IMG/VR virus record: IMGVR_UViG_2563366891_000016
Direction: 5' to 3' (one strand)
From: a virus
Taxonomy: Duplodnaviria; Heunggongvirae; Uroviricota; Caudoviricetes
Length of the DNA: 40,687 nucleotides
A program made the translations under genes and the position numbers. Each line of letters opens with the position of its first letter. The stretch's first letter is position 1. Of the stretch, positions 2,522 through 38,026 are shown one piece after another. The notes under the pieces are model-generated. The model saw only the letters and a program-made list of their open reading frames with translations. It ran no database searches and had not been told where the DNA came from.

Positions 2522-2830
2522 TTAGTGATGTTCTTTGCCCTTCTGTTTGCCTGTTCTGACCTGTTCCCACTCGATACGTCCTTCTTCTCGTCTTTTGTCT
2601 ATGTATTCCGCAAGATCCTGAATATTGATGCAACGTTTTGCTTTTTGTGATGTGCCGATGCGATATGTTGGAACGGGCAACTTACAAGCGTTTGCTTTTG
2701 CTTCTGCCGTGGCTGGACTCATGCCAAAGTACTTTTGGCTAACTGCTGAGAGTTCAATGTTAGGGGTATTGAATTCAGCCATCAGTAAAAACAAGGTGTT
2801 CATAATTTTCTCCATCAAAACCGGCTGCAC
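2522..2830 (-). CDS. Excisionase-like DNA-binding protein (PrtN/AlpA-like)
   Basis: 102-aa protein with KYFGMSPATAEAKANACKLPVPTYRIG and DLAEYIDKRREE, recalled as typical of PrtN-type small HTH proteins; last gene of the leftward early operon, next to attL. Confidence 0.45.
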   Translation of the reverse strand: MQPVLMEKIMNTLFLLMAEFNTPNIELSAVSQKYFGMSPATAEAKANACKLPVPTYRIGTSQKAKRCINIQDLAEYIDKRREEGRIEWEQVRTGKQKGKEHH

Positions 2831-2839
2831 CCGGGAAAA

Positions 2840-3415
2840 TCATAATTCTGTGCTGGTGGCAGGAATTAATTTCTGCCAGATAGCGGAAACATATTTTGCC
2901 TGATGACGGGCATCGGCCAGGGCGTTGTGCCGTTCGCCATCGAAAGGCATGTCCATTTTGGGGTCGAATCCGATGTAACGCCCAAGCGTAACGATCGTGC
3001 GTACATCGTGGTCATTCCAGTATGCCCACGGGCAGATTTGTCCTGCTCGCTCATAAGCTCCACGTAAAATTACGTTGTCGAAGGTGGCCCCGTTACCCCA
3101 GACTTTTAAATATTTCGTATTGGCTGCGTGCCGGTTAATGAAATGATTTAGTTCTGAGAGAGCATCGCTGATCGACAAAGTATCATCAATACAGATTGCA
3201 GCTCGTGCTTCAGTGCTTTGTTTCAACCACCACAGGATGGTATCGCCGTCAGGTGTAGCTCCTTGCCCCATAGCACTTTCCAGGCTAACAACCGTATAGA
3301 ATTCTTGTCCGATGTCTCCGGTTTCTGGAGTGAAGAACACCGCGCCAATGGAAACGATCGGTGCATCCTTATTTTTCCCCATCGTCTCAAGGTCGATCAT
3401 TAAGTTGTTCATCAC
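2840..3415 (-). CDS. DEDDh-family 3'-5' exonuclease (DnaQ-like)
   Basis: N-terminal MIDLETMG...SIGAV acidic motif and a C-terminal H-x4-D motif (ERHNALADA). Confidence 0.6.
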   Translation of the reverse strand: MMNNLMIDLETMGKNKDAPIVSIGAVFFTPETGDIGQEFYTVVSLESAMGQGATPDGDTILWWLKQSTEARAAICIDDTLSISDALSELNHFINRHAANTKYLKVWGNGATFDNVILRGAYERAGQICPWAYWNDHDVRTIVTLGRYIGFDPKMDMPFDGERHNALADARHQAKYVSAIWQKLIPATSTEL

Positions 3416-4035
3416 TTCACCTCCTGCGGCGGTTCCGGTAGCGGCATCCAGTGAGTTGCTTGCTCAATACCATTACCCGGCTTAATCGTTGCATCTCCGC
3501 GCCGAAAGGTGCTTCCGGTATAGCGTGCGGAGCATATTAGCGGTTCAACCAGAGGGCTATCGAAATTCACCGAAATAAGCACGTTCTGGCCCTTTTCAGG
3601 CATTCGATCACTACAGCTTATCCAACCATCCGGAGTTACCGGAGAGTTGCCCGACAGCTCGTTCAACTTGTAAGTCTGGCTTACAGGTTCGGCACCATTA
3701 AGCATGGCGGCGCGGCAGGCGTTCCAGCCTTCATCAAAGCCGACTATGCCATTATTTAAAGACGGACGAGCATCTGGCACCACCGGCACTGGCTTGGCTA
3801 TATATAGCGGCTGAACATACCAGCCCTTTGATAACCAACTGTCAGCAATGTTTTTACTCCTCGTTATTGCCGGAATACCTAAGCCATTTTCTGAATGCAG
3901 CCATGCCACCGGCTCCTCTTCTAGCGATGCCAGAGCAATTTCATAAGCACGGCGCTCAATATCGTCTCGAACCTCTAGGCTGCTGATTCGTTCTTTGATT
4001 TCTTTAATCAGTTCTTTATTGGTAAATGTGGTCAT
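3412..4035 (-). CDS. Phage protein with DUF551-like C-terminal domain (207 aa)
   Basis: C-terminal WISCSDRMPE...HWMPLPEPP; 4-nt start/stop overlap with the downstream gene. Confidence 0.5.
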   Translation of the reverse strand: MTTFTNKELIKEIKERISSLEVRDDIERRAYEIALASLEEEPVAWLHSENGLGIPAITRSKNIADSWLSKGWYVQPLYIAKPVPVVPDARPSLNNGIVGFDEGWNACRAAMLNGAEPVSQTYKLNELSGNSPVTPDGWISCSDRMPEKGQNVLISVNFDSPLVEPLICSARYTGSTFRRGDATIKPGNGIEQATHWMPLPEPPQEVK

Positions 4036-4397
4036 TATGCTCCAGCCTCCGGCGCTTTTGGCATTACTGCCCAGTGAGTGATATTGAAGTTTTCAAGGTC
4101 CCCGACCTGAAATGTCCACTGCCATTCTCCGGTTTCTTTTTGTCCCCAGGTGTACCAGAGAGAACGCCAGCCAATCAGCCAGCCTTCTCCGTTAGCATCA
4201 AATAACAGAACACTTTCATTTGCTGGTGGCAGTTCAGCTGACACTGGTATTATTTTGTTTTCCAGTGCCGCACATTTAGCTTCAAGCGCGTCGAATTTAC
4301 GTACCAGGTACTCAGCATTTGTTTCATTCACTTTCAGATCTCGCGGTACACATTTCCCGCGAAGAAACCCTTCCATTTCGAAAACATTCATGCGCAT
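4035..4397 (-). CDS. yfdS: YfdS-like phage protein with DUF551-like motif (120 aa)
   Basis: 120 aa, matching the recalled length of CPS-53 YfdS; C-terminal HWAVMPKAPE; overlaps flanking genes. Confidence 0.45.
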   Translation of the reverse strand: MRMNVFEMEGFLRGKCVPRDLKVNETNAEYLVRKFDALEAKCAALENKIIPVSAELPPANESVLLFDANGEGWLIGWRSLWYTWGQKETGEWQWTFQVGDLENFNITHWAVMPKAPEAGA

Positions 4398-4924
4398 TTG
4401 CGTAACTCCGATAACTCGTTAAAACGTTCCATAAACATCCCGTAGGCATGACCCGGTGCCAGTGGAATCACGTTGAACATCTCTGTTGCCGGGATGCCTT
4501 CCAGTACAGGCCAGAAAGAGCCATCATCAAGCCCGAGATCGCGGCGTTCGGTTGCCAGCATGATAAGATCGGCATATTTCACGGGCGTACTCATAACTGG
4601 GGGTAACCCGTATTTCTCACGGATTACGGCGTCAATTTTTTCTTCCATCCGTTTATAGTCAGGAAGAAGGCGTTTCAGTGGAGCGGGAATATCCTGGCAA
4701 TACGCTTCTGTTGCATCATGCATTAACGCTTCAAAAGCAAATTCCTGCGGCACCAGCTGGCTGCAAAGCACCGCATGTTGGGCGACACTGTAGAAGTGAG
4801 AAAGATGACCGGCAAAGCGGCAGATATTTGAAAGGGAAACCGCGATATCGTTAATCACGATGTCGTCTTTATTTATCTTGTCATAATAAAAATGCTTCCC
4901 GGAAAAAGTTTTAATAAATGACAT
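4388..4924 (-). CDS. yfdR: HD-domain phosphohydrolase (YfdR-like, 178 aa from MSFIK start)
   Basis: H...HD metal-binding motif (HAVLCSQLV...EALMHDATE); ATG at 4922-4924 with ggag RBS 7 nt upstream gives 178 aa, the recalled length of CPS-53 YfdR. Confidence 0.55.
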   Translation of the reverse strand: MSFIKTFSGKHFYYDKINKDDIVINDIAVSLSNICRFAGHLSHFYSVAQHAVLCSQLVPQEFAFEALMHDATEAYCQDIPAPLKRLLPDYKRMEEKIDAVIREKYGLPPVMSTPVKYADLIMLATERRDLGLDDGSFWPVLEGIPATEMFNVIPLAPGHAYGMFMERFNELSELRKCA

Positions 4925-5051
4925 TTTGTTCTCCACGTATATGCGCTGCACCGCGCTGAGTTTGGGTAAAAGGAAGCCCTCACCATCCGGTGATTATTGA
5001 GTTAATTACGTTTCCATAAATGCCCCCGCAGGGGCATTTGCAGTAATGAAA

Positions 5052-5876
5052 TCAGGCGGTGAAAGTACCAATAAAGGTTTCTACTTTGCTGTCTTTGAAT
5101 TTCTCAACAAGCAGATCACGAAATTCGTTAGCCATATCTTCCTGCACCGCTTCCAGCTGAATAATGCGCAGAACCAGTACAGGACGATCGCCAGTGATAA
5201 TGCTGAGGCGTAATTTAAACGGACGTTCTTTCAGACCTTCAAACGGAACGCATTTAAATTCAAATGCCACTGGCATAATGTCTTTGGTCTTCGCTTCGAC
5301 AGATTCCATCAGGGAGCGTTTGCCGCTGAAGTCATTATCTTCAAAATCAGCGGTCTGGTTTGCTTCAATCGTGATTTTACGGACTGCCGCAGCCGCTTTT
5401 GTTGCCTGAATAGCGTCACCATTAGCATCAAAGCCCACAAGGTAGTCGGCCCAGTCTTCAATCCATTCTGCCAGTGACTTCTGGGAGTTACGCTCGCCGT
5501 TAACAGACAACAGGGCAGAGAACGGTGCTGTCTTTTTCAGTTTGAGAGTGGCGGTGTTATCTGCGTGACCTGGTTCATCAATAGTACCCAGGTTAAGTAC
5601 ACTGACGGCACGCATATTATCAGCATCGATAAAGCAGCGGGTGCCTTCATCTGCAAGATCTTTAGAATAACGGGTAAAGTCATCGATGCTGGCAGTGGAA
5701 AGCGCACCACGGAAACGGAAGCGATTTAAATTAAATTTTTCCAGATCATGAATGCGGAAATTCTCAGGCAATGCCACAGCATCGGCACCAATCTTACTGA
5801 TAATTTCATTAACACCCTGAGCAGAAATAAGGGCATGGATTTGATTAATTGCGGTTGCGTCTAAGTTCTGAGACAT
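5052..5876 (-). CDS. yfdQ: YfdQ-like protein (DUF2303), 274 aa
   Basis: 274 aa, the recalled length of K-12 CPS-53 YfdQ, in the same position within the yfdP-Q-R-S order. Confidence 0.5.
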
Positions 5877-5941
5877 AATAAGTCCTCACTATATAAAGAT
5901 ATTCAGTGATGAGATAAATAATCAGTTAATTAAGAACGATA

Positions 5942-6304
5942 TTAATGACCTGCTGCGCGTAGTTTTCCGTCAGGTTCACCGGCAAGAGTCAGTAATTGTC
6001 CCTGGTCTTCCTGCAGAATAGTCAGGCGACCACCGCGATTGACATACATCGGCGTTTCGGTGGTGTCTTCTTCGGAAATTTTCCCGCGGTTAGTCGGGCG
6101 AACATATGAGAGTTTGTGTTTGATTTTCACACGGTTCTCATCAAATGGTTCGATTTCCAGGTTGAGTGAGACCTTACCTTTGGTTTTCGTGTTCATCACA
6201 CCGGAAGCGACTTCACTGAGAACAGCGCCGATTTTGGTTTCAAATACGCCGCCGTCCAGCTCCCCGATAAATGCCTGCACATCAGTACTGCGTTCGCTAG
6301 CCAT
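5942..6304 (-). CDS. yfdP: YfdP-like protein (120 aa), start at MASERS
   Basis: ATG at 6302-6304 preceded by GAGGAG 7 nt upstream; 120 aa as recalled for YfdP. The longer track ORF to 6532 starts at GTG inside a structured non-coding region. Confidence 0.5.
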   Translation of the reverse strand: MASERSTDVQAFIGELDGGVFETKIGAVLSEVASGVMNTKTKGKVSLNLEIEPFDENRVKIKHKLSYVRPTNRGKISEEDTTETPMYVNRGGRLTILQEDQGQLLTLAGEPDGKLRAAGH

Positions 6305-6440
6305 TTTGCTGCTCCTCATCATATCGACCCTGCAAGGTCGGTTAGTTTCTCCACAAAACAGAGAAGAACACCTGCGGTGGCAGCCGCCCGGATGGATTGG
6401 GTTATGAGCCCGTCGTCCGGTGATGCTCTTCTCTGTTTTG

Positions 6441-6486
6441 TAAAAAGAGCGGTACCAGCCGGAAGCAAGGGTACAAACTGGTACCG
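6441..6486 (-). terminator. Intrinsic terminator on the minus strand
   Basis: 9-bp stem cggtaccag/ctggtaccg (6450-6458 / 6478-6486) with 19-nt loop, followed on the minus strand by ctcttttta. Confidence 0.45.
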
Positions 6487-6547
6487 CCAGGACTACACAC
6501 AGCAATGAAACTATTGCCTGTCTTTTCACCACTTCAGGCTCGGTGGT

Positions 6548-6925
6548 ATGCTGGAGTTCTCACACAGCCAGCAAGGAAACCTAATGAACCAGTTTTATGT
6601 TCACGTTCGTCTGTTTGAAGCAACAGCCGAACAGACCAAAAAATTTGAAGAATTAATGCTTAACTTTCTGTACCAGAAAACAATCAAAGAGTCTGACGAT
6701 AGCTGCTGCAGACTGATTCCAGAGGGATATATCCTCAAAAGCACAATGAACTGCCAACAAATCCTTGATCAAACTTTTTCCATTGCTAACAGTGCTGGTG
6801 TTGACGCAAATATATTTGTCTGCAAATTTGAACAAAGCGTATGCTTACTTCCGTCTGCTTCCTTAGTTGGCAACGATTTTGTTCATCACGATCTTACGCC
6901 TAAGCCCATCAAGCTCGATTCTTAA
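6548..6925 (+). CDS. Opposite-strand hypothetical protein (moron-like); alternative start at 6584 (MNQFYV)
   Basis: AT-rich ORF on the + strand inside a minus-strand operon; 6584 has RBS aagga 7 nt upstream; preceded by long inverted repeats. Confidence 0.4.
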   Translation: MLEFSHSQQGNLMNQFYVHVRLFEATAEQTKKFEELMLNFLYQKTIKESDDSCCRLIPEGYILKSTMNCQQILDQTFSIANSAGVDANIFVCKFEQSVCLLPSASLVGNDFVHHDLTPKPIKLDS

Positions 6926-7171
6926 TGCCTTAACCATTGTGTCGTGATAAACACGGCTCACCCTCTCTCCATTGCATGGCAGTGGGGTGATCGTGTTAGC
7001 CATGAAATTCATGAACTTGGTTCGATCAGGGTCTTGCGCCTCGCAAGTCTTTAATGCCTGTTTTGCTAACAAAATACGGGCCTCAGTGCCTGCATTTGGC
7101 TCTATCTGCTGCAAACGTTTAGCGTCTTCCAGCAACAATGCGATCACATGCTTCAAATCCTGCTCATTCAT
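6863..7171 (-). CDS. First gene of the leftward early (PL) operon, hypothetical (102 aa)
   Basis: ATG at 7169-7171 with ggagag RBS; lies where lambda N sits, but the protein is not arginine-rich, so no N assignment. Confidence 0.5.
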   Translation of the reverse strand: MNEQDLKHVIALLLEDAKRLQQIEPNAGTEARILLAKQALKTCEAQDPDRTKFMNFMANTITPLPCNGERVSRVYHDTMVKALRIELDGLRRKIVMNKIVAN

Positions 7172-7275
7172 CTATTCTCTCCACTGAAATCATCCGCTAA
7201 CGAATCATCCTGGACTTCATATGCCCCAGGCGGCTACTTCGTGGGCGTCCTGCCTGTTCGTTACTGCAACATCTT

Positions 7276-7319
7276 TAAGTTGTAATCTAGTTGTTGTTTT
7301 GGTTGTTGTCAACAACTTT
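7276..7319. promoter_or_regulatory. Left operator/promoter region (OL/PL-like)
   Basis: Repeated AAGTTGTTG / CAACAACTT half-sites; the same motif recurs in the cI-cro intergenic region. Confidence 0.45.
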
Positions 7320-7506
7320 ATGTGGTTTTGACGGATGTGAAATGAGGGCAAGGGTTATCAAAAAAGGAGGTTGTATGGACGATGCGCTTTTAATTACACA
7401 AGGGACACTTTCCTTCCGTGATTGGAAACTCTCAAATCACGGGAGGAAGATTGAAAAGGCGGGTAATAATGGTAACTAAATTTCTGAAGGAAGGTTTTTT
7501 GATGCA

Positions 7507-8193
7507 TTACCAAGTGCGCGATGACCAGAATACTCTACCTATAACGTGAATTCTGGAACGCCTATCTTCGAAGGTGAGTATTTCATCTGGATACTCATCT
7601 TTATTGAAACTTCTTAGAATCAGACCACCGTCAGGTAAATTGATCAATATTTTAACTCTAAGTAATACGCCATCACGTATGGCATAAAGATCCCCATCAC
7701 GAATAGGAACCGTTTGGGAAACATCAACAGCAACAAAATCTCCATTGTTAAGTACAGGTAGTAAACTATTGCCCCAAATTTTTACGATCTTTGCATTGGA
7801 GACACATACACCAGCTTTTCTTAAATCAATCCTTCTTAGCGGGAACCAGTCTACAGTTGATTCAACTATTTCAGCCAAACATCCATTACCCGCTGATAAC
7901 TCGACATCTAGGACTGGAATGTTTGCAAAAATGTCAGGATCTAATGCTGTACTTTCAGCCTCCTTTACAACAAGGTCTGGGAAAGACGCGTTATCCTCAA
8001 TGCCCAATTGCAACCACTTTTGAGAAACCCCTAACACTTTAGCAATCTCTTTAATTTTCCGAGGCTGTTGAGTTTCTCCATTCTCGATTTTCGCTACGGA
8101 TTGTTGTGAAAGCCCAATTTTTTCAGCTAGTTGCGCCTGACTCATTCCTGCTTTTTCTCTTTCGCTTTTTAGTCTTTCTGCCAATGTTTTCAC
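7507..8193 (-). CDS. cI: CI-like prophage repressor (HTH plus LexA-like S24 peptidase domain)
   Basis: N-terminal HTH (MSQAQLAEKIGLSQQSVAKIENG) and C-terminal autocleavage-type domain; GTG start with gaggggga RBS; divergent from the cro-like gene. Confidence 0.8.
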   Translation of the reverse strand: MKTLAERLKSEREKAGMSQAQLAEKIGLSQQSVAKIENGETQQPRKIKEIAKVLGVSQKWLQLGIEDNASFPDLVVKEAESTALDPDIFANIPVLDVELSAGNGCLAEIVESTVDWFPLRRIDLRKAGVCVSNAKIVKIWGNSLLPVLNNGDFVAVDVSQTVPIRDGDLYAIRDGVLLRVKILINLPDGGLILRSFNKDEYPDEILTFEDRRSRIHVIGRVFWSSRTW

Positions 8194-8222
8194 AACATAT
8201 CCCCCTCGTTTTTATTGAGGTT

Positions 8223-8317
8223 ACAACTTTATGTTTTGGCTTTCCAACATCTAAAAGTTGTGATAAAAGTTGTTGTAGTTGTATAATCGAAGTTATCAAC
8301 AACTTTACTACTTACAG
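8223..8317. promoter_or_regulatory. Right operator/promoter region (OR with PR/PRM)
   Basis: Inverted copies of ACAACTTT/AAAGTTGT and AAGTTGTTG/CAACAACTT, a tataat -10 and a ttgtga -35 directed toward cro. Confidence 0.5.
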
Positions 8318-8330
8318 ATAGGAGAAAGCT

Positions 8331-8579
8331 ATGACACCTGAGCAATTAGCCTTATCAGAGGCAATCGCTCTGGCTGGTGGTCAATCAGAATTGGCTCGGA
8401 AGCTCACAGCCAGCAGTGGTCGTTTAGTAAAGCAACAACATGTCTGGAACTGGTTGAACAGAGAAAAGCGTCCCCCTGCAAAGCTTTCGATATTTATTGA
8501 AATGACCACTGGCGTATCAAAAGAAAAATTACGTCCAGATATTTTTCAAAAGATTAAAGACTTATCAGATGGAAAGTAA
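8331..8579 (+). CDS. cro: Cro-like HTH regulator
   Basis: 82-aa protein with HTH (QSELARKLTASSGRLVKQQ), divergent from cI, RBS aggaga. Confidence 0.6.
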   Translation: MTPEQLALSEAIALAGGQSELARKLTASSGRLVKQQHVWNWLNREKRPPAKLSIFIEMTTGVSKEKLRPDIFQKIKDLSDGK

Positions 8580-9159
8580 CCACAGTTTTAAGGAGATAGC
8601 CGTGGGTAAGCATCACTGGAAAGTAGAAAAACAGCCTGAGTGGTACGTGAAAGCTGTCAGAAAAACTATCGCAACATTGCCGGGTGGTTACGCTGAAGCA
8701 GCTGACTGGCTGGATGTAACAGAGAACGCATTATTTAACCGCCTTCGTGCTGATGGCGATCAGATTTTCCCGCTGGGATGGGCAATGATTTTGCAACGTG
8801 CTGGTGGAACTCACTTCATTGCTGACGCTGTGGCGCAGTCTGCAAATGGCGTCTTTGTGTCTCTTCCTGACGTCGAGGATGTGGACAACGCCGATATAAA
8901 CCAGCGCCTGCTGGAAGTCATCGAACAGATCGGGAGTTACTCAAAGCAGATTCGTTCGGCAATCGAAGATGGGGTAGTGGAGCCACACGAGCAGACAGCA
9001 ATTAATGATGAGTTGTATCTGTCAATTTCGAAGCTCCAGGAGCATGCAGCACTGGTCTACAAAATCTTTTGCGCTCCAGAAAAGAGTAACGCCCGCGAGT
9101 GTGCAGCTCCGGGCGTCGTGGCGTCGATTGCTTCTGGTTGTGGAGAAACTAACGCATGA
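8569..9159 (+). CDS. CII-like (CP76-type) regulatory protein
   Basis: Second gene of the rightward early operon, about 190 aa; family assigned from recalled resemblance only. Confidence 0.4.
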
Positions 9160-9494
9160 ACAGTTTAACAACACACTACCGTCGCTCGCAACTGATTGCG
9201 CTTCCTGTACCGGGTGGAAAAGCGAAGGTGGAGTATTGCTATGCAGTGAATGTACCAGGTGACAGGGAAATTGTAACCCACAGATTTGCAGAGTGGGCTG
9301 TGGGTGATTTCAACCGGCAGAAGGAGACAGTCCTTTGCAACAAGTTAACCGCTGGTTCAAAGATCACTACGGAGTGCCCGTCAGAGTCATTCGTTGGGAA
9401 CCGGAAACACAACGGGTTATCTACCTCCGCGAAGGCTATGAGCATGAGTGCTTCAGTCCGCTCGAACAGTTTCGTCGTAAATTCAGGGAAATAG
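9156..9494 (+). CDS. Hypothetical protein; only the N-terminal ~60 codons look protein-like
   Basis: ATG ORF whose distal part is serine-rich low-complexity sequence and overlaps the 9335 ORF out of frame. Confidence 0.3.
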
Positions 9495-9547
9495 AGGTCG
9501 GTCATGAGCCTGTTAATGACATCCCAGCCCATTGTGATAAATCGTGA
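9335..9547 (+). CDS. Hypothetical protein with TTG start (70 aa)
   Basis: TTG at 9335 with AAGGAG 8 nt upstream; well-composed translation ([34 protein letters not shown]). Confidence 0.4.
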
Positions 9548-10496
9548 TCTTGCATGCCGTATTGGTCTGAATGAGGCAATTGTGTTGCAGCAGCTTCATT
9601 ACTGGCTGAATGAAACGAATTCAGGCACTGAGCATGGCGGAATTCGCTGGGTTTATAACACGACAGAACAGTGGCTGGAGCAGTTTCCGTTCTGGTCAGA
9701 GTCCACTCTGAAACGCACATTTGCAAGCCTGAAATCACTTGGGGTTTTGCGTCGCGAGCAACTCAATAAATCGAAGCGTGACATGACCAACTTCTACACG
9801 ATCAACTATGAAAGTGAGCTTTTAGAAGAGGTCAAAGTGAACGAATCCATCAGGTCAAAATGCACTTCTCCATTGGGTCAAAGTGACCTGATGGATGGGC
9901 GCAAAATGACACGATCCATAGGTTCAAAACGACACGCTGTCATCGGGTCAAAATGGCCCAATGATCTTACAGAGAATACAACAGAGATTACTACAGAGAA
10001 TAAAACATCTTCTCGTCCGGACGCTTCGCAACCGGACACGCAAACGGCCGAACAGGAGTTTTTAACTCGCCATCCTGATGCGGTTGTATTCAGTCCTAAA
10101 AAGCGCCAGTGGGGAACGCAGGATGATTTGACCTGTGCACAGTGGCTCTGGAAAAAAATCATCGCCCTGTACGAGCAGGCCGCCGAATGTGACGGCGAAG
10201 TGGTTCGTCCCAAAGAACCGAACTGGACAGCCTGGGCAAACGAAATTCGCCTGATGTGTGTACAGGATGGGCGTACTCACAAACAAATCTGCGAGATGTA
10301 CAGCCGCGTCAGCCGCGATCCGTTCTGGTGCCGTAACGTGCTCAGCCCGTCGAAGCTGCGGGAAAAATGGGATGAGCTTTCCCTGCGCTTATCGCCGTCC
10401 GTCAGCACGTACACCGAAAAACGCGAAGACCCGTACTTCAAAGCCAGTTACGACAACGTGGACTACAGCCAGATCCCGGCAGGATTCAGGGGGTGA
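9504..10496 (+). CDS. Replication initiator (lambda O-like; HTH N-terminus, DnaT-like C-terminus)
   Basis: Sits in the O position after the cII-like gene; N-terminal HTH region; direct iterons and an AT-rich repeat lie inside the coding sequence, as in lambda O/ori. Confidence 0.6.
   Translation: MSLLMTSQPIVINRDLACRIGLNEAIVLQQLHYWLNETNSGTEHGGIRWVYNTTEQWLEQFPFWSESTLKRTFASLKSLGVLRREQLNKSKRDMTNFYTINYESELLEEVKVNESIRSKCTSPLGQSDLMDGRKMTRSIGSKRHAVIGSKWPNDLTENTTEITTENKTSSRPDASQPDTQTAEQEFLTRHPDAVVFSPKKRQWGTQDDLTCAQWLWKKIIALYEQAAECDGEVVRPKEPNWTAWANEIRLMCVQDGRTHKQICEMYSRVSRDPFWCRNVLSPSKLREKWDELSLRLSPSVSTYTEKREDPYFKASYDNVDYSQIPAGFRG
9852..10000. repeat. Putative origin of replication: iterons plus adjacent ACAGAGA-repeat block
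   Basis: Four copies of GGTCAAA(A/G)(T/C)G(A/C)C at about 9852, 9876, 9922 and 9946, then three ACAGAGA(A/T)T repeats at 9969-9997. Confidence 0.55.
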
Positions 10497-10498
10497 TC

Positions 10499-10987
10499 AT
10501 GAGTCTTTTGAATGACGTTCAGAAATTCATTGAAGCCCATCCGGGGTGTACTTCCGGAGACATTGCGGATGCTTTTGCAGGTTACTCACGGCAGCGCGTT
10601 CTGCAGTCAGCAAGCAAGTTACGTCAGAGTGGGCGTGTGGCTCACCGTTGTGAAGGAGATACACGCAGACATTTCCCACGCCTTACTGAGAGAGCGCAGG
10701 AGCCGGAACCACAACCAGTTCGTGAAACCAGACCTGTGCGCAATTTCTATGTCGGCACTAACGATCCCCGGGTGATTTTGTGCCTGACCCGCCAGGCGGA
10801 AGAACTGGAGTCAAGGGGCTTATACCGTCGTGCTGCAACCGTGTGGATGGCGGCATTCCGTGAAAGCCACTCCCAGCCAGAACGAAACAATTTTCTGGCA
10901 CGTCGTGAGCGGTGCTTACGGAAAAGCAGCAAGCGCGCTGCATCGGGTGAAGAGTGGTATCTGTCAGGGAATTACGTGGGGGCTTAA
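10499..10987 (+). CDS. PerC/ANR-family regulator-like protein
   Basis: Motif EELESRGLYRRAATVWMAAF resembles the recalled PerC signature; start coupled to the O stop; stop overlaps the dam start (TAATG). Confidence 0.4.
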   Translation: MSLLNDVQKFIEAHPGCTSGDIADAFAGYSRQRVLQSASKLRQSGRVAHRCEGDTRRHFPRLTERAQEPEPQPVRETRPVRNFYVGTNDPRVILCLTRQAEELESRGLYRRAATVWMAAFRESHSQPERNNFLARRERCLRKSSKRAASGEEWYLSGNYVGA

Positions 10988-11640
10988 TGAGTAATAAATA
11001 TTGCCGGGCGCTGGTGGAACTGCGGAACAAACCAGCCCATGAACTGAAGGAAGTGGGCGATCAGTGGCGCACGCCGGATAACATTTTCTGGGGAATTAAC
11101 ACCCTGTTTGGCCCGTTTGTCCTGGATCTGTTTACTGACGGTGATAACGCCAAATGTACCGCGTATTACACGGCGGAAGACAACGCGCTGGCGCATGACT
11201 GGTCAGAACGTCTTGCGGAGCTTAAAGGTGCTGCCTTTGGTAATCCCCCATACAGCCGCGCCAGTCAGCATGAGGGGCAATACATCACCGGCATGCGTTA
11301 CATCATGAAACATGCCAGTGCCATGCGTGATAAAGGCGGGCGCTATGTTTTCCTGATCAAAGCTGCCACCAGCGAAGTGTGGTGGCCGGAAGATGCAGAT
11401 CATATTGCTTTTATTCGCGGGCGTATTGGTTTTGAACTGCCTGCCTGGTTTATCCCGAAAGATGAGAAGCAGGTGCCGACAGGCGCTTTCTTCGCTGGTG
11501 CTATTGCTGTTTTCGACAAGACCTGGAAGGGACCGGCAATCAGCTACATCGGGCGCGATGAACTTGAGGCATGTGGTGAGGCGTTTCTGGCGCAGGTTCG
11601 CCAGCAGGCGGAAAAACTGGTCAGGGAGATGGCGGCATGA
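10987..11640 (+). CDS. Phage DNA N6-adenine methyltransferase (Dam-like)
   Basis: GNPPY catalytic motif; ATG overlaps the upstream stop. Confidence 0.7.
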   Translation: MSNKYCRALVELRNKPAHELKEVGDQWRTPDNIFWGINTLFGPFVLDLFTDGDNAKCTAYYTAEDNALAHDWSERLAELKGAAFGNPPYSRASQHEGQYITGMRYIMKHASAMRDKGGRYVFLIKAATSEVWWPEDADHIAFIRGRIGFELPAWFIPKDEKQVPTGAFFAGAIAVFDKTWKGPAISYIGRDELEACGEAFLAQVRQQAEKLVREMAA

Positions 11641-11963
11641 CGACGTTAACTCAATGCCAGCAGCAGGTGCTGGATATGCTGATTTCTTACCAGAAAGAAC
11701 GTGGCTTCCCGCCAACCAATCAGGAGGTGGCAACCATGCTGGGATACCGTTCAGTGAATGCAGCGGTGGAGCATCTTCGCGCACTGGAGAAAAAAGGCGT
11801 CATCACGATAAAGCGTGGCGTGGCCCGGGGGATAACGCTTCATACTGCGATGAAGGACGACGACAGCGAGGCGGTCGGGATTATCCGCTCACTGCTTGCC
11901 GGTGAGGAAAACGCCAGGCTGCGTGCAACCCACTGGTTACATGAGAGGGGCCTGAAAGTATGA
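11637..11963 (+). CDS. LexA-like N-terminal DNA-binding-domain protein (no peptidase domain)
   Basis: 108-aa protein; LTQCQQQVLDMLISYQKERGFPPTNQEVATMLGYRSVNAAVEHLRALEKKGVI resembles the LexA winged-helix DNA-binding domain. Confidence 0.55.
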   Translation: MTTLTQCQQQVLDMLISYQKERGFPPTNQEVATMLGYRSVNAAVEHLRALEKKGVITIKRGVARGITLHTAMKDDDSEAVGIIRSLLAGEENARLRATHWLHERGLKV

Positions 11964-12349
11964 AGCTGATCCTTCCTTTCCCGCCCAGTGTGAACACGTA
12001 CTGGCGACACCCCAACAAAGGGGCATTTGCTGGTAAGAGCCTGATAAGCGAGGCGGGGCGAAAATTTCAGAGCGCGGCGTGCGCAGCAATAGTTGAGCAG
12101 TTACGTCGTCTGCCGAAATCAACGTCGGCACCTGCTTCAGTGGAGATCGTGTTGTTTCCTCCGGATAACCGGATCCGCGATCTGGACAACTATAACAAGG
12201 CGCTGTTTGACGCCCTGACCCACGCGGGTGTGTGGGAAGACGACAGACAGGTGAAAAGAATGCTGGTGGAGTGGGGACCGGTTATCCCGAAAGGGAAGGT
12301 CGAGATCACTATCAGTAAGTATGAGAAACCGGCGGGTGCAGCCGCCTGA
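11960..12349 (+). CDS. rusA: RusA Holliday junction resolvase
   Basis: 129-aa protein with PFPPSVNTYW and DLDNYNKALFDAL motifs. Confidence 0.8.
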   Translation: MKLILPFPPSVNTYWRHPNKGAFAGKSLISEAGRKFQSAACAAIVEQLRRLPKSTSAPASVEIVLFPPDNRIRDLDNYNKALFDALTHAGVWEDDRQVKRMLVEWGPVIPKGKVEITISKYEKPAGAAA

Positions 12350-12368
12350 TTAAGAGGAGAAACGAAGT

Positions 12369-13178
12369 ATGAATAATCTGATGGTCATTGATGGTATTGA
12401 AGTTCGTCGTGATGCTTATGGGCGTTACAGCCTGAATGATCTGCATCGCGCAGCAGTAGCATCTGGTGCAAATGCCAGAACCAAGGAGCCAGGAAAGTTT
12501 CTTTCCAGCCAACAAACTGTTGAGCTTGTTCATGAATTGACCAACACCCAGAATTTGGGTGTTGGCCCGGTGAGTGTGATTCATGGGGGAAATGAACGGG
12601 GAACGTATGTCTGCAAGGAACTGGTGTATGCCTATGCAATGTGGATCAGCCCGTCATTCCATCTGAAGGTGATCCGTACTTTCGATATGGTAACCAGCGC
12701 ACCGGAAAAATTATCCGGACAGGCTGCTGACAAGATGCAGGCTGGTGTGATCCTGCTGGACTTTATGCGCCGGGAATTAAACCTGTCTAACTCATCAGTG
12801 CTTGGTGCCTGTCAGAAACTCCAGGAGGCTGTTGGCTTACCGAATCTGGCACCGCGCTATGCCATTGATGCTCCTGCTGATGCACACGATGGCTCAAGCC
12901 GCCCCACGCTGTCACTGAGTGCACTGCTGAAGCAGTATGGTATCCGCCTGACAGCTAATCAGGCATATCACCAGATGGCGAAGCTGGGGATCGTTGAACA
13001 ACGCGAACGATACAGCCGTACCGCGATTAACAACATCAAAAAATTCTGGTCGCTGACCGCGAAAGGCTGCATGTTCGGCAAGAACATCACCAGTCCTGCA
13101 AATCCGCGCGAGACGCAGCCGCATTTCTTCGAATCCCGATTCCCTGAGCTGTTAAAGCTGCTCGATACCGTTCATTGA
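12369..13178 (+). CDS. KilA-N domain protein (putative antirepressor-like)
   Basis: N-terminal IDGIEVRRDAYGRYSLNDLHRAA is a KilA-N-like signature; strong RBS aagaggag. Confidence 0.55.
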   Translation: MNNLMVIDGIEVRRDAYGRYSLNDLHRAAVASGANARTKEPGKFLSSQQTVELVHELTNTQNLGVGPVSVIHGGNERGTYVCKELVYAYAMWISPSFHLKVIRTFDMVTSAPEKLSGQAADKMQAGVILLDFMRRELNLSNSSVLGACQKLQEAVGLPNLAPRYAIDAPADAHDGSSRPTLSLSALLKQYGIRLTANQAYHQMAKLGIVEQRERYSRTAINNIKKFWSLTAKGCMFGKNITSPANPRETQPHFFESRFPELLKLLDTVH

Positions 13179-13179
13179 G

Positions 13180-14175
13180 GTGACCGTGAGAGCACTACTG
13201 ACCCCTGAAATTGCCCCGCGTATGGGGATCGTATTGTTCAGACCAGGTTCAGAGCTGATGCCCTTGTTTATGCAGGGGCGTGTCCTGCTGGAGCCTGAGC
13301 CGGAACGTTATTCATCTTTCGCCAGTGGTGCCGTTCCGGCGGCATCACAACCGCTGGCGGATGATCCTGCCGTTCGGGCCGTGTTCCGCAATGAGGCAGT
13401 GATCCGTCGTGCTGGTGGCGTGGAATGTCTTGAAAGCTGGTTACTTCGTGAAAAAGGCTGCCAGTGGCCTCATTCCGACTGGCACAGCGAGAACATGACA
13501 ACAATGCGACACGCTCCGGGCGCAATCCGTCTGTGCTGGCACTGCGATAACCAGCTGCGCGATCAGTTCACGGAACGGCTGGAATCAATGGCAACGGATA
13601 ACTGTGCCCGCTGGGTGTTGTCTGTTGTGCGTCGGGATCTCGGTTTTGATGACAGTCATGTTGTGACAATGCCGGAACTGTGCTGGTGGCTGATTCGTAA
13701 TGATCTGGCGGATGCCTTACCGGAAAGTGCAGCCCGTAAGGCACTGAGATTACCGAAGCCTGTTGTGCCGTCTGTTACCCGGGAAAGTGACCTTGTGCCT
13801 TCGGTTCCTGCCACCAGCATCATCCAGGATAAGGCGAAAAAGGTGCTGGCGCTGAAAGTGGATCCGGAGTCGCCGGAGTCTTTTATGTTACGCCCAAAAC
13901 GTCGCCGCTGGGTTAATGAAAAGTACACGCGCTGGGTTAAGACACAGCCGTGTGCATGTTGTGGAAAGCCTGCTGATGATCCCCACCACCTGATAGGTCA
14001 CGGTCAGGGGGGAATGGGTACAAAAGCGCATGACCTCTTTGTGTTGCCTTTGTGCAGAAAGCATCACGACGAGCTGCATGCGGATACCGTGGCATTTGAA
14101 GAGAAGTATGGCTCCCAGTTGGAGCTGATATTTCGTTTTATCGATCGTGCGCTGGCAACAGGCGTACTGGCGTAA
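13180..14175 (+). CDS. DUF968-like prophage protein with C-terminal Cys/His-rich motif
   Basis: C-terminal CACCGKPADDPHHLIGHG...LCRKHHDELH; in the nin-region position before Q; start codon uncertain. Confidence 0.4.
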   Translation: MTVRALLTPEIAPRMGIVLFRPGSELMPLFMQGRVLLEPEPERYSSFASGAVPAASQPLADDPAVRAVFRNEAVIRRAGGVECLESWLLREKGCQWPHSDWHSENMTTMRHAPGAIRLCWHCDNQLRDQFTERLESMATDNCARWVLSVVRRDLGFDDSHVVTMPELCWWLIRNDLADALPESAARKALRLPKPVVPSVTRESDLVPSVPATSIIQDKAKKVLALKVDPESPESFMLRPKRRRWVNEKYTRWVKTQPCACCGKPADDPHHLIGHGQGGMGTKAHDLFVLPLCRKHHDELHADTVAFEEKYGSQLELIFRFIDRALATGVLA

Positions 14176-14188
14176 GTGGAGAACGAGC

Positions 14189-14941
14189 ATGAACCTTGAA
14201 GCCTTACCGAAATATTACTCCCCGAAATCTCCAAAACTGAGCGATGATGCACCGGCGACAGGCTCTGGTGGTTTAACAATTACGGATGTGATGGCTGCGC
14301 AGGGGATGGTGCAGTCGAAAGCACCGCTTGGGTTTGCCTTATTCCTGGCAAAAGTTGGTGTTCAGGATCCTCAGTTTGCGATTGAAGGTCTGCTCAATTA
14401 CGCGATGGCACTGGATAACCCGACATTGAATAAATTGAGTGAAGAAACCCGGCTACAGATCATTCCTTACCTTGTGAATTTTGCCTTTGCTGATTATTCC
14501 AGGTCTGCGGCAAGTAAGGCTCGCTGTGAGCATTGTGCAGGTACGGGATTTCATAATGTATTGCGCGAAGTGGTGAAACACTCCAGAAGCGGGGAGTCTG
14601 TTATCAAGGAAGAGTGGGTGAAGGAACTATGTCAGCATTGTCATGGTAAGGGAGAAGTCAGCACAGCGTGCAGAGGGTGTAAGGGTAAAGGTATTGTCCT
14701 GGATGAAAAAAGGACCCGGCTTCATGGCACGCCTGTTTATAAGATTTGTGGGCGTTGCAATGGAAACCGGTTTAGCCGTTTACCAACCACACTGGCGCGG
14801 TGTCATGTCCAGAAGCTGGTACCAGCCCTGACTGATTATCAGTGGTACAAAGGATATGCAGATGTCATTGATAAACTGGTGACAAAGTGCTGGCAGGAAG
14901 AAGCATATGCTGAGGCGCAATTAAGAAAAGTGACGAGATAA
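14189..14941 (+). CDS. Late antitermination protein Q-like (zinc-finger repeats)
   Basis: Last early gene, directly upstream of a promoter-plus-terminator leader and the lysis cassette; repeated CxxCxGxG motifs; ATG at 14189 with ggag RBS. Confidence 0.55.
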   Translation: MNLEALPKYYSPKSPKLSDDAPATGSGGLTITDVMAAQGMVQSKAPLGFALFLAKVGVQDPQFAIEGLLNYAMALDNPTLNKLSEETRLQIIPYLVNFAFADYSRSAASKARCEHCAGTGFHNVLREVVKHSRSGESVIKEEWVKELCQHCHGKGEVSTACRGCKGKGIVLDEKRTRLHGTPVYKICGRCNGNRFSRLPTTLARCHVQKLVPALTDYQWYKGYADVIDKLVTKCWQEEAYAEAQLRKVTR

Positions 14942-14972
14942 ATGATTTTCGCCGAAGATAGCGACATGATTC

Positions 14973-15001
14973 TTGCATTTTTCAAAAAATCTGGTTAGGA
15001 T
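14973..15001 (+). promoter_or_regulatory. Putative late promoter PR' (-35 TTGCAT, 17-bp spacer, -10 TAGGAT)
   Basis: Located just after the Q stop and before the tR'-like terminator. Confidence 0.4.
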
Positions 15002-15047
15002 TCTCCTAACGATGGGCTTTGTGTGTCTACCGTTGATAATCTTCAAG

Positions 15048-15071
15048 AAACCGCCACCGAGCGGTTTTTTA
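15048..15071 (+). terminator. tR'-like intrinsic terminator
   Basis: Stem aaaccgc/gcggttt with 6-nt loop, followed by a T-run. Confidence 0.65.
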
Positions 15072-15229
15072 TTGATGTCAATTGTGTTTTTAAGGCTCTC
15101 CTTCCTTAAAGTGTGTTGTACAAAAAACTGGCAGCCAGCTACGCTCATTTTGAAAAAGTGACACCCTTCAATGTTTCTTTTGAATGGAATTGCTACCCAT
15201 AAATCTCTATCAAAAACAGGAGAGCATAT

Positions 15230-15472
15230 ATGGTGGAGCGTTGTTCTGTTTGTGAGCAGTCATTAAGTTATTCACGAGAAGTTGAACAAGATGGCGTTGA
15301 ATATAAATCTTGCCCAAAATGTTCTGCTGATGCCGGAGTGCACGTTTTTTATAAAACAATAGACTTTGGTTATAGGGATATGGGAGACGGAAGGCATATC
15401 GTTCAGTCATGGTGTCCGGCTTGTCGTTCTGGTGAAAAACCTTCTATACCACCAGCATTTAAATGTTGTTAA
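15230..15472 (+). CDS. Small zinc-ribbon protein (80 aa)
   Basis: ATG with AGGAG 7 nt upstream; Cys pairs CSVCEQ, CPKC, CPAC and a C-terminal CC; flanked by tR' upstream and its own terminator downstream. Confidence 0.5.
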   Translation: MVERCSVCEQSLSYSREVEQDGVEYKSCPKCSADAGVHVFYKTIDFGYRDMGDGRHIVQSWCPACRSGEKPSIPPAFKCC

Positions 15473-15491
15473 CTCAATGAATTATAAAAAG

Positions 15492-15516
15492 AGGCTGCCT
15501 GTGGGCGGCCTTTTTT
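15492..15516 (+). terminator. Intrinsic terminator
   Basis: Stem aggctgcc/ggcggcct (one mismatch) followed by a run of 6 T. Confidence 0.55.
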
Positions 15517-15603
15517 GTGCACTACGCAACTTTTGCGACTCAGCGCTATAACCAGCTTCTTTCCCTTCACTCGTTGCACTTCCGATAACCGGAGGTGGGA
15601 ATT

Positions 15604-15945
15604 ATGAAAATGCATAACGATCCTCATTCCTGGTCTGACTTACTTGAATTATTACAGAGCTGGTGGCGTGGAGACACACCGCTGGGCGCAGTAATTATGT
15701 CGATCGTTATGGCTGGCTTGCGCATTGCCTATTTTGGCGGTGGTGGTGGCTGGAAGCGAAAAACGCTCGAGATTTTGCTCTGCGGCGCTCTGACGCTGAC
15801 TTTTGCATCCGCTCTTGAGTATGTCGGATGGCCTAAATCGCTTTCTGTTGCCATTGGTGGTGGCGTTGGGTTGATCGGTGTCGATGCTATTCGTGGGGCT
15901 GCAATGAGAGTAATCGGTAACAAGTTTGGTGGCTCTAAGGAGTAA
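15604..15945 (+). CDS. S: Holin (lambda S-like, dual-start MKM)
   Basis: GGAGG RBS 8 nt before ATG 15604, second Met two codons later; hydrophobic segments and a charged C-terminus; directly precedes the endolysin. Confidence 0.7.
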   Translation: MKMHNDPHSWSDLLELLQSWWRGDTPLGAVIMSIVMAGLRIAYFGGGGGWKRKTLEILLCGALTLTFASALEYVGWPKSLSVAIGGGVGLIGVDAIRGAAMRVIGNKFGGSKE

Positions 15946-15948
15946 TTT

Positions 15949-16425
15949 ATGCAGGTACTAAATTCCCAGCGTAAAGCTTTCCTTGATATGGTGGCTTGGT
16001 CAGAAGGAACGGATAACGGACGACAACCGACACGTAACCACGGTTATGACGTTATTGTCGGTGGTGAACTCTTCACTGATTACTCCGATCACCCTCGCAA
16101 ACTTGTCACGCTAAACCCCAAACTCAAATCAACAGCCGCCGGACGTTACCAGTTTCTTTCACGCTGGTGGGATGCTTACCGTAAACAGCTTGGCCTGAAA
16201 GATTTTTCTCCAGAAAGCCAGGACGCTGTAGCTCTGCAGCAGATTAAAGAGCGTGGCGCTTTACCGATGATTGATCGCGGTGATATCCGTCAGGCAATCG
16301 ACCGTTGCAGCAATATCTGGGCTTCACTGCCGGGCGCTGGTTACGGTCAGTATGAACATAAAATCGGTGACCTGATTGCCCGGTTTAAAGAGGCTGGTGG
16401 GGTGGTAAATGAAGTTGAGCTATAA
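15949..16425 (+). CDS. R: Endolysin, lambda R-like lytic transglycosylase (158 aa)
   Basis: Near-identical in length and sequence to recalled lambda R (QRKAFLDM.AWSEGTDNGRQ.TRNHGYDVIVGGELFTDYSDHPRKLVTLNPKLKSTGAGRYQ). Confidence 0.85.
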   Translation: MQVLNSQRKAFLDMVAWSEGTDNGRQPTRNHGYDVIVGGELFTDYSDHPRKLVTLNPKLKSTAAGRYQFLSRWWDAYRKQLGLKDFSPESQDAVALQQIKERGALPMIDRGDIRQAIDRCSNIWASLPGAGYGQYEHKIGDLIARFKEAGGVVNEVEL

Positions 16426-35783: not shown

Positions 35784-36830
35784 TCATATTAAAGCTTTTC
35801 GTAAAAGTGTCTTGCCGATTAAAACACCTCTTCGCTCTACAAGCTTGTGCGCAAAATAACAAACTATAAATAACAATAATAATATTTGAATGTTACTATT
35901 GATGTATTTAATTCCGATTTTATTAACTACTAATAACAAAGAGTCCCAAATCCAGTTATGAAATAAGTACACAGCATAAGTCATTTCAGATAGCAAATTG
36001 CATGCTTTGGATTCAATGAATCTATCTTTAAATAACCACGAACAAAGAAAAATAACAGTTCCTGTGAATGCGTAGTTGTAGTGCCCCCAGAATGGGTTTA
36101 TTTTTTCAATGAGAGATAAATGAAGATAGAACATAGTTACGATGGATATTAAAGCAACAATCCGATTAACTAACTTATGCTCTGTAAGGTACACTACTAC
36201 ACCTATAAACAAAAATGGCGTATACAAGGTGAAGTAAGCATTATGAAAATCCTTCGCTACAGGGAAAGGATTAATGGTGGATATAAATAATGATATAAAA
36301 AGTAGTAGAACTGTTAAAACGTTTCCTTTATTTATGAGTCCGACTTTTTTAACCAAACCCATAAACACATAGAACAGCATTTCTATTCTTAACGTCCATT
36401 CAACACCAGCCAATGAAAGAGGTGTGTTAAAGAAATCGCCTATAAGCAATAATCTAGGTATTATTATGCTCAGAGGTGGAATGTTTCCACCATTATAGTA
36501 TTGGATCAACATTTCAGCTAAAACAGCAAAAATATAGAGTGGGTATATTCTAAATATTCTTTTTAAATAAAATTCAAAAGTTGCTTCTTTTTGTAGTACG
36601 TGGGTGATGATGTACCCTGAAACAAGAAAGAAGATCACAACCCCCATTGCACCACCGAAACTGGCATCTGCTAGTAATCCGTAAAAAAGCCTCAGTGTAA
36701 AGTGGTTACTTGGATCGTTCGCCAACGAAGATAAATCTTTGTTGAACTTATGACCTAACACCACAAGGGAGAACGCAATTACACGCATGTAATCTAAAAA
36801 AAGAATTCGACGATTGTTCATGATTTTCAT
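35784..36830 (-). CDS. Acyltransferase family 3 integral membrane protein (O-antigen acetyltransferase-like)
   Basis: AT-rich gene; polytopic membrane protein with FLDYMRVIAFSLVVLGH near the N-terminus (OafA/Oac-type conserved R and H); sits between tail genes and the integrase, as O-antigen modification genes do in Sf6/SfV-type phages. Confidence 0.7.
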   Translation of the reverse strand: MKIMNNRRILFLDYMRVIAFSLVVLGHKFNKDLSSLANDPSNHFTLRLFYGLLADASFGGAMGVVIFFLVSGYIITHVLQKEATFEFYLKRIFRIYPLYIFAVLAEMLIQYYNGGNIPPLSIIIPRLLLIGDFFNTPLSLAGVEWTLRIEMLFYVFMGLVKKVGLINKGNVLTVLLLFISLFISTINPFPVAKDFHNAYFTLYTPFLFIGVVVYLTEHKLVNRIVALISIVTMFYLHLSLIEKINPFWGHYNYAFTGTVIFLCSWLFKDRFIESKACNLLSEMTYAVYLFHNWIWDSLLLVVNKIGIKYINSNIQILLLLFIVCYFAHKLVERRGVLIGKTLLRKALI

Positions 36831-37777: not shown

Positions 37778-38026
37778 TTAGTGAACAAACCACTCGTCAG
37801 CAGATTCCCAGGTATCTTTCAGAGTCTCCTGAACAAAAGTTTTTACAGAATCCTTATCTGCGGTGCGTGTAACAGAAAGGCCATCGTTGCTGGTGGCTTT
37901 TACGATCACCTCTACATCATCATAACGTTTACTGATGCGTCGGGTTAATTCTTCCTTTAACGCGTCCACAGCACCGGTTGGCATTTTAGTCATTTTTTCT
38001 TTGGCTATGCAGATTTCAATACGCAT
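37778..38026 (-). CDS. DinI-like protein
   Basis: 82 aa with MRIEICIAK start and [10 protein letters not shown] end, matching the DinI family pattern. Confidence 0.65.

Follow-up and report, generated by a model that had tools for sequence, protein, structure and literature searches.

We analysed a DNA window of 40,687 nt (IMG/VR virus record IMGVR_UViG_2563366891_000016; "the window" means this whole stretch) and focused on positions 2840 to 6304, where six genes on the minus strand extend from the stop codon of an exonuclease gene to the start codon of yfdP. They encode YfdP, YfdQ, YfdR and YfdS (the yfd block), a 207-aa protein with a DUF551 domain and the exonuclease, and they form the middle and distal part of a pL (early-left) operon. 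The window is a 40.7-kb piece of an E. coli chromosome, not a free phage genome, and carries a lambdoid prophage of about 38 kb. Our main finding is that this is probably a Chi-rich prophage of the phage LLS type, lacking a recombination (Rec) module and using host RecBCD and RecA. The yfd block would not be a cryptic recombinase, and its best-supported activity would be interference with DnaA and oriC. We estimate the probability of the whole account at about 0.72.

The prophage encodes no recombination module

The yfd block, the DUF551 protein and the exonuclease sit where phage lambda carries gam, bet and exo. The lambda Red, P22 Erf/Abc, Rac RecET and HK620 Sak4 modules have the same early-left position and the same time of expression as this block. 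An earlier reading of the window made from its letters alone (the sequence-only reading) had recognized no annealase in the operon. It had proposed that one of the uncharacterised proteins, YfdQ first, might be the recombinase, and had suggested that profiles and folds be compared.

Pfam and PHROG profiles were scanned for each open reading frame (ORF) of the early-left region, of the early-right region through lysis to terminase, and for most of the integrase-proximal ORFs. Among the scanned ORFs there was no match to annealases, to the lambda-Exo, YqaJ or RecE families, or to SSB, Gam or Abc2. A reference panel of 17 Rec proteins was then compared with the window. It comprised lambda Exo, Bet and Gam; P22 Erf, Abc1, Abc2, Arf and NinB; PA2 Gam, RecT, Exo and SSB; Rac RecT and RecE; and HK620 Sak4, SSB and Abc2. 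tblastn of the panel against the six frames of the whole window gave a best E value of 0.08. hhalign of the panel against the YfdQ and YfdP alignments and the DUF551, YfdS, orf102 and orf125 sequences gave probabilities of at most 9% throughout. The highest hhalign value, a 16-residue match of orf102 to HK620 Abc2, was treated as noise.

Folds predicted with AlphaFold2 (AF2) were searched for YfdQ and YfdP, in fold libraries that did not include PDB 9o7m. The YfdQ model (mean confidence score, pLDDT, of 76) retrieved no annealase fold. The YfdP model (pLDDT 73.5), a long helix packed on a three-stranded sheet, gave only generic matches, with no OB fold and no annealase fold. The failure to recognize an annealase was thus upheld by Pfam, PHROGs, tblastn and hhalign alike, and the proposed comparisons revealed no annealase likeness either for YfdQ (hhalign and fold search) or for DUF551 (hhalign). 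By sequence, no protein of the block is a member of the Red, Erf, RecET or Sak4 families, and for YfdQ and YfdP the predicted folds give the same answer.

A partner exonuclease that degrades double-stranded DNA 5'-3' was likewise not found. The only nuclease of the operon is of the DEDDh 3'-5' type, whereas recombination modules have a 5'-3' enzyme of the PD-(D/E)xK type. A 3'-5' polarity would not make the 3' tails that an annealase uses. In the approximately 38 kb of the prophage, none of these searches revealed an annealase, a 5'-3' exonuclease, an SSB or an inhibitor of RecBCD. The only genes related to recombination are those for RusA, a junction resolvase, and DinI, a modulator of RecA filaments, and both of these work with the host RecA pathway.

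Chi sites are abundant, co-oriented and clustered

Chi (GCTGGTGG) was present at 18 sites, against 1.6 expected from dinucleotide shuffles. The orientation was biased 15:3, and the 15 sites were on the plus strand, the strand of the late genes (Table 1). Of 27,124 octamers on the plus strand, GCTGGTGG ranked first and TGCTGGTG second. Shuffling of synonymous codons, with the proteins and the overall codon usage kept, gave 3.0 +/- 1.5 plus-strand sites, and 9 was the highest count among 500 trials. All three reading frames contained sites, as did genes on either strand. The density of the sites, one per 2.1 kb, is twice the E. coli average.

To place the sites on a linear genome, the sequence was opened just upstream of the terminase genes, so that the position of the right end follows from that of the terminase. 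Eight of the 15 plus-strand sites fell in the last 22% of this putative linear genome (P=0.008), though GC content is lower there. This saturation with Chi would explain why no annealase is needed. The phage would rely on host recombination by way of its 15 co-oriented Chi sites, which are concentrated on the right side of the packaged DNA. A RecBCD enzyme that loads at the linear end would be turned by Chi into a RecA-loading recombinase, and the products of recombination would be resolved by the phage's own RusA.

The prophage resembles phages of the LLS type

Phage LLS and 71 other lambdoid phages have been described that have no Rec module and whose growth is enhanced by RecBCD (Zheng, Casjens, Davidson, Amundsen and Smith, Genome Res 2025, PMC12315714). 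The class is defined by 8 or more Chi sites in the active (top-strand) orientation together with no more than 6 in the inactive one; the prophage has 15 and 3. The ratio of active to inactive sites in LLS is 20:3, and the totals are 18 here and 23 in LLS. In LLS, Chi is the top octamer and TGCTGGTG the second, half of the sites are in the rightmost 22%, and a lone O-like gene serves replication (PMC12315714). The prophage shows the same two leading octamers, the single O-like gene and, with the end placed from the terminase, a right-end concentration of Chi that is independent of GC content. TGCTGGTG has been reported as the second octamer of P1 as well.

The lambdoid layout is also shared, as is the early-left yfdP/yfdQ/HD cluster, which lacks a single-strand annealing protein, Exo, SSB and Gam. 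The same yfbR/yfdQ/yfdP cluster was named in LLS, ST64B and phiNP, and it was judged unlikely to encode unrecognised recombinases because ArgO145 has both the cluster and a full Rec module (PMC12315714). Unlike LLS, the element studied here is an integrated prophage in dusA, with tail genes of putative myovirus type judged from ORF sizes. The YfdQ allele is of the K-12/mEp460/SfV type and is about 57% identical to YfdQ of ST64B. Among 80 IMG/VR contigs with this YfdQ allele, YfdP was present in 80 and YfdR in 79, and no Rec gene was found in the flanking DNA of any of them (up to 10 kb a side). The reliance of the LLS class on host RecBCD via Chi is already published, and the prophage would be one more member of that class.

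The yfd block and host replication

The block has been described before in E. coli K-12, where it is part of the cryptic prophage CPS-53 (KpLE1). The sequence-only reading had matched it to yfdP-Q-R-S of CPS-53 by size and order. The match proved closer than that, with full-length identities of 99.2, 99.6, 99.4 and 99.2% for YfdP, YfdQ, YfdR and YfdS and with the same gene order, gene lengths, spacers and overlaps. Downstream the two differ. The 101-aa YfdT of CPS-53 is replaced by the 207-aa DUF551 protein, which by blastp is 95% identical to YfdT over its N-terminal 42 aa only, and no full YfdT orthologue was found in the block. The DEDDh exonuclease before the excisionase is an additional gene relative to CPS-53. 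CPS-53 is a cryptic remnant of 10 kb, whereas the prophage studied here is of full length.

Since YfdP, YfdQ, YfdR and YfdS are about 99% identical to those of K-12, the published data on DnaA binding and oriC concern near-identical proteins. Purified K-12 YfdR binds domain I of DnaA via Phe46 and competes with DiaA and DnaB, and YfdQ, YfdR and YfdS (or YfdT) together block initiation at oriC (Noguchi and Katayama 2016, PMC4776307). yfdP is dispensable for this block. The authors suggested a role in phage growth analogous to that of lambda P (PMC4776307).

The sole replication gene of the prophage is the O-like initiator gene, with a gene for a PerC-like activator directly next to it (9504-10987), and no helicase-loader partner of the P, DnaC or DnaB type was found, which agrees with what has been reported for LLS. 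The competition of YfdR for the DnaB-binding site of DnaA is possibly relevant to DnaB recruitment in such a loader-less prophage. By analogy with K-12, the yfd block may be a DnaA-based host-takeover function for a phage with only an O-like initiator. Interference with host replication would be the best-supported activity of the YfdQ-R-S part. This account is incomplete, since the core that evolution has conserved is another pair, YfdP-YfdQ.

Several points weigh against the account given so far. RecBCD dependence was shown for phage LLS and would extend to this prophage by analogy, and the putative packaging (cos or pac) end was placed from the terminase position. The oriC block by overexpression may be an artefact, as its authors themselves cautioned, and deletion of yfdQRST had no replication phenotype (PMC4776307). 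As YfdP was dispensable in the oriC assay, the DnaA data leave the strictly conserved YfdP-YfdQ pair unexplained, and this pair is also present in Vibrio, Xanthomonas and Halomonas phages that have no YfdR. Finally, the AF2 models are of medium confidence, so that an annealase fold that has diverged very far may have escaped the search, and the DUF551 proteins were judged at the level of sequence.

The YfdP-YfdQ pair in other phages

In a different reading, YfdP and YfdQ would be an obligate two-gene cassette that assists phage modules for recombination or DNA-end processing in a way so far overlooked, working with SSB, with exonucleases and, in Rec-less phages, with host RecBCD and RecA, without being an annealase. 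The block would then have to do with recombination after all. We consider this unlikely. YfdP was found directly upstream of YfdQ in 10 of 10 diverse phages, which infect Escherichia, Salmonella, Pseudomonas, Vibrio, Xanthomonas and Halomonas and most of which have no YfdR. The pair was inside or beside true Rec modules in several phages. In Vibrio podophages its place is between SSB and an exonuclease. In PA2 the order is Kil-Gam-RecT-Exo-SSB-YfdP-YfdQ. Vibrio phage 34E29.1 has ERF-YqaJ-DnaQ-YfdP-YfdQ-SSB (3432-8419), and Xanthomonas phage CP2 has YfdP-YfdQ-DUF1351-ERF-YqaJ (2639-7430, with the YfdQ homologue at 3068-3892). Vibrio phage pA2SJ1 carries Erf, SSB and NinB along with YfdP-YfdQ, and in Burkholderia phage JC1 RecT, YqaJ and DUF2303 form one module.

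Among 76 proteins encoded near the pair in eight diverse phages, a Pfam census counted SSB four times, DEDD exonucleases four times, ERF twice and YqaJ twice. It was this census that revealed the ERF and YqaJ genes of 34E29.1 and CP2, which are annotated as hypothetical. DUF551, for its part, coexists with the Sak4 module of HK620. The accessory reading is also favoured by the greater sensitivity of a K-12 yfdQ deletion to methyl methanesulfonate and hydrogen peroxide (cited in PMC4776307).

At 50% clustering, at least 1,809 of 1.84 billion representatives belong to the YfdQ family, which is essentially confined to phages; INPHARED has 184 records of complete phages with YfdQ. We also considered YfdQ as a gene of plasmid leading regions and rejected this, as only 23 of 72,556 plasmid records contained it and most of these look like phage-plasmids or mislabelled chromosomes. 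Conserved polar and charged residues run through the family. A solved homologue is deposited as PDB 9o7m ("YfdQ Protein"); it shares 98.8% of its sequence with a protein of the Cp2-like Xanthomonas podophage MET23-P3. The 36 chains of the entry suggest a large YfdQ homo-oligomer. The literature search found no publication for 9o7m, and a preprint on cryo-electron microscopy of PhiXacm4-11 does not mention it; no PDB match was obtained for the Cp2 neighbour ORF36 or for the YfdP profile. The YfdQ homologue of phage JC1 was reported to be virion-associated by mass spectrometry (PMC9144972).

Both the assembly and the conserved charged residues would suit an accessory of DNA processing. However, early phage operons pack many unrelated genes, which makes adjacency a weak argument. 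No DNA-binding fold was recognized, and YfdQ is acidic (pI 5.0, net charge -10). The best 150 of the 1,809 representatives were all stand-alone proteins with no fused domain to inform function; nearly all were 250-300 aa long, apart from a few shortened fragments. Zheng et al. also considered it unlikely that recombination proteins are encoded by the cluster (PMC12315714). If the pair does act in this way, then in Rec-less, Chi-rich lambdoid phages such as this one it might be the only input of the phage to recombination-dependent replication, for example by protecting ends or presenting them to RecBCD and RecA, or by a link to DnaA and DnaB via YfdR.

Other readings of the operon

In another reading, the HD protein YfdR and the DEDDh exonuclease are a unit for the hydrolysis of nucleotides or signals, which either clears the deoxynucleoside monophosphates of degraded DNA like T5 Dmp or destroys nucleotide second messengers on which host defence systems depend; YfdP and YfdQ would be unrelated passengers. 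YfdR resembles the HD-domain 5'-deoxynucleotidases T5 Dmp and E. coli YfbR in its HD fold and in H50 and H69-D70, which are readable in the sequence; D119 is a candidate for the closing aspartate. The PHROG label of the HD protein, deoxyribonucleoside 5'-monophosphate phosphatase (2e-111), derives from this group, and the RefSeq name of K-12 YfdR is 5'-deoxynucleotidase. The motifs of the exonuclease are intact as well: Exo I (DLET at residue 8), Exo II (FD at 112) and Exo III (H-x4-D at 163). It matched PDB 8kel, an "exodeoxyribonuclease", at 7e-10. In Pseudomonas phage pAN the exonuclease and HD genes adjoin and overlap. The exonuclease also weakly matched the Cas-associated DEDDh model of PADLOC (1e-5), and PADLOC assigned nothing else to a defence system.

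Unlike the enzymes of this group, YfdR scores below the cutoff of the Pfam YfbR-like family (24.2 against 25.9 bits), and DnaA binding is specific to it. K-12 YfdR is reported to be a weak 5'-deoxynucleotidase with nucleotide affinities much below those of YfbR (PMC4776307). The exonuclease was present in only 13 of the 80 contigs with the same YfdQ allele, many of which are incomplete, so that its linkage looks loose. Neither protein matched a known anti-defence family in the libraries searched. As an explanation of the operon this reading is quite improbable; nucleotide or signal hydrolysis, which the sequence-only reading had named as its second possibility, is plausible for the HD protein and the exonuclease only.

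That YfdQ, with or without YfdP, is a new single-strand annealing recombinase in place of Bet, RecT or Erf appears very improbable to us. YfdQ is the largest uncharacterised protein where lambda has bet, its homologue forms the large assembly of 9o7m, and it is often beside SSB and exonucleases. Against this, it has no likeness in fold or profile to any annealase family, and the neighbouring exonuclease has a 3'-5' polarity, the wrong one for an Exo/annealase pair. At least five phage lineages (PA2, CP2, 34E29.1, pA2SJ1 and JC1) encode YfdQ in one operon with RecT or Erf. Because YfdP-YfdQ coexist with such modules, and DUF551 does in HK620, the uncharacterised proteins probably do not stand in for an annealase, and the suggestion of the sequence-only reading on this point was not sustained. 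The enrichment of Chi also shows selection for the use of host RecBCD, which would be unneeded with an efficient phage recombinase.

Least probable of all is the loss of a Rec module by deletion from a decaying, defective prophage: the same block is in cryptic CPS-53 and an integrase-like fragment lies at 36906-37232, but the same Rec-less architecture is found in the viable phages mEp460, SfV, ST64B and PhiR47_1, the ORFs have the sizes expected for a full regulatory, replication, lysis, terminase, head and tail set (head and tail by size), and oriented, end-clustered Chi sites above the host average indicate long-term adaptation instead of recent loss.

Organization of the early-left operon

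The gene content given by the sequence-only reading (exonuclease, two DUF551 proteins, an HD protein, YfdQ and YfdP) agreed with Pfam and PHROG assignments for all six genes. The operon genes are ordinary and widespread, and by megablast the block was 96-98% identical in mEp460, PhiR47_1, 1720a-02, Stx2c phages and others. Tight translational coupling had been claimed for the operon. It was seen only from yfdR down to xis, with overlaps of 10, 1 and 4 nt at the junctions and a final gap of 9 nt, and not in yfdP-yfdQ-yfdR, where the spacers are 65 nt (yfdP-yfdQ) and 127 nt (yfdQ-yfdR). An alignment of homologues points to the Met of MASERST as the probable true start of YfdP, six codons inside the annotated gene that starts at 6304. 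The mechanically called yfdP ORF (5942-6532) extends 76 codons upstream of the annotated start, to a GTG at 6532.

A perfect hairpin with a 9-bp stem and a 4-nt loop, AAATGCCCC-TGCG-GGGGCATTT, was read in the yfdQ-yfdR spacer and is not followed by a T tract. The K-12 yfdQ-yfdR spacer has the same length as here. An attenuator, a processing site and an RNA stabiliser are candidate roles for the hairpin.

Upstream of the block, a putative pL-like promoter sits just left of the repressor gene. The first ORF downstream of it encodes 102 aa on the minus strand and occupies the slot where an N-type antiterminator is expected. It overlaps a convergent plus-strand ORF by 63 nt at the 3' ends, and mEp460 annotates the plus-strand ORF only.

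Setting of the prophage

The prophage is inserted in the 5' end of dusA. On the left, positions 1-957 encode a host DUF2713 (yjbM-like) protein. On the right, DusA (tRNA-dihydrouridine synthase) is encoded at 39274-40311 and PspG within the last ORF. Thousands of E. coli genomes match positions 1-1484 or 1-1599 of the window as the same chromosomal neighbourhood. The two copies of a 107-nt repeat mark the displaced (1317-1423) and the phage-supplied (39271-39377) 5' ends of dusA. The putative integrase ORF is divergent from host dusA.

The organization is lambdoid, with divergent pL and pR around CI/Cro, followed by CII, the O-like gene, a nin region with RusA, Q, lysis genes and late genes, and the early region resembles those of mEp460, SfV and ST64B. 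After the O-like gene come genes for PerC, Dam, a protein with a LexA DNA-binding domain, RusA, KilA-N, DUF968/HNH and Q. They are followed by lysis genes, HNH, terminase and then late ORFs whose sizes resemble those of myovirus-type head and tail genes.

The minus-strand ORF at 36906-37232 encodes 108 aa, of which the C-terminal part is weakly like the end of an integrase (phrog_1, 1e-6). It adjoins an O-antigen acetyltransferase moron (35784-36830) and may be a remnant of an earlier integration module. No structured RNAs or tRNAs were found in the window. Location of cos by comparison with mEp460 was ruled out, as mEp460 has a different, lambda-type terminase and its record begins at the terminase gene.

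Table 1. Positions of features in the window, with strand and the evidence for each.
Feature	Position	Strand	Evidence or remark
Imperfect direct repeat associated with att, 107 nt, 82%	1317-1423; 39271-39377	+ (1317-1423)	blastn
Excisionase-like protein (PrtN/TorI type), last gene of the leftward operon	2522-2830	-	Pfam PyocinActivator 4e-23; PHROG 1300 excisionase 8e-40
DEDDh 3'-5' exonuclease (Rv2179c-like, DnaQ superfamily)	2840-3415	-	Pfam PF16473 5e-75, positions 1-177 of 177; PHROG 255 exonuclease 2e-93
Chi inside the exonuclease gene	2852-2859	+	Strand opposite to the gene
207-aa protein, C-terminal DUF551 domain	3412-4035	-	Pfam DUF551 1e-21, 78.1 bits (cutoff 22); PHROG 60
YfdS, 120 aa	4035-4397	-	Borderline DUF551, 22.6 bits (cutoff 22)
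Chi inside yfdS	4222-4229	+	Strand opposite to the gene
YfdR, HD-domain phosphohydrolase	4388-4924 (ORF to 4951)	-	PHROG 318 2e-111; PDB 2gz4 1e-13
Hairpin in the yfdQ-yfdR spacer	5018-5039	-	Read from sequence
YfdQ (DUF2303), 274 aa	5052-5876	-	Pfam 1e-92
YfdP (PF27127), 120 aa	5942-6304	-	phrog_204 1e-49
Convergent ORF	6548-6925	+	phrog_8894 5e-41
102-aa ORF	6863-7171	-	phrog_12693 1e-70
Putative pL-like sigma-70 promoter, TTGACA-17-TAGATT	7284-7312	-	Consensus scan, 10 of 12 positions
CI-type repressor (helix-turn-helix and S24 peptidase)	7507-8193	-	Pfam HTH_3 1e-15; Peptidase_S24 1e-13
Early-right/nin/lysis region	8373-16400	+	9 of the 15 plus-strand Chi sites
O-like replication initiator	9504-10496	+	PHROG 391 2e-101
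RusA Holliday-junction resolvase	11960-12349	+	Pfam RusA 3e-14
DinI-like RecA-filament modulator	37778-38026	-	PHROG 189 3e-30
Putative integrase, 1098 nt	38088-39185	-	Same size and position as the mEp460 integrase (between DinI and a gp23-like gene); adjoins dusA
Plus-strand Chi sites	2852, 4222, 8373, 8800, 11010, 12262, 13411, 13682, 15659, 16163, 16393, 20064, 23133, 26159, 37889	+

Significance

The sequence-only reading overlooked the co-oriented Chi sites, the phage class of PMC12315714 and the K-12 data on YfdQRST and DnaA (PMC4776307). With these considered, the gap where a recombinase is expected would be a sign of use of the host RecBCD-Chi pathway, not of a hidden recombinase, and it can be read from octamer statistics. 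The prophage is a further carrier of a K-12 gene block and would be a further case of a phage class published in 2025; in this respect it changes little. The YfdP-YfdQ pair is widespread, strictly paired and repeatedly found inside true recombination modules, and it merits the attention of a specialist. If the pair is an accessory of recombination or replication restart, it would supply a missing piece in the replication of temperate phages that have no Rec genes.

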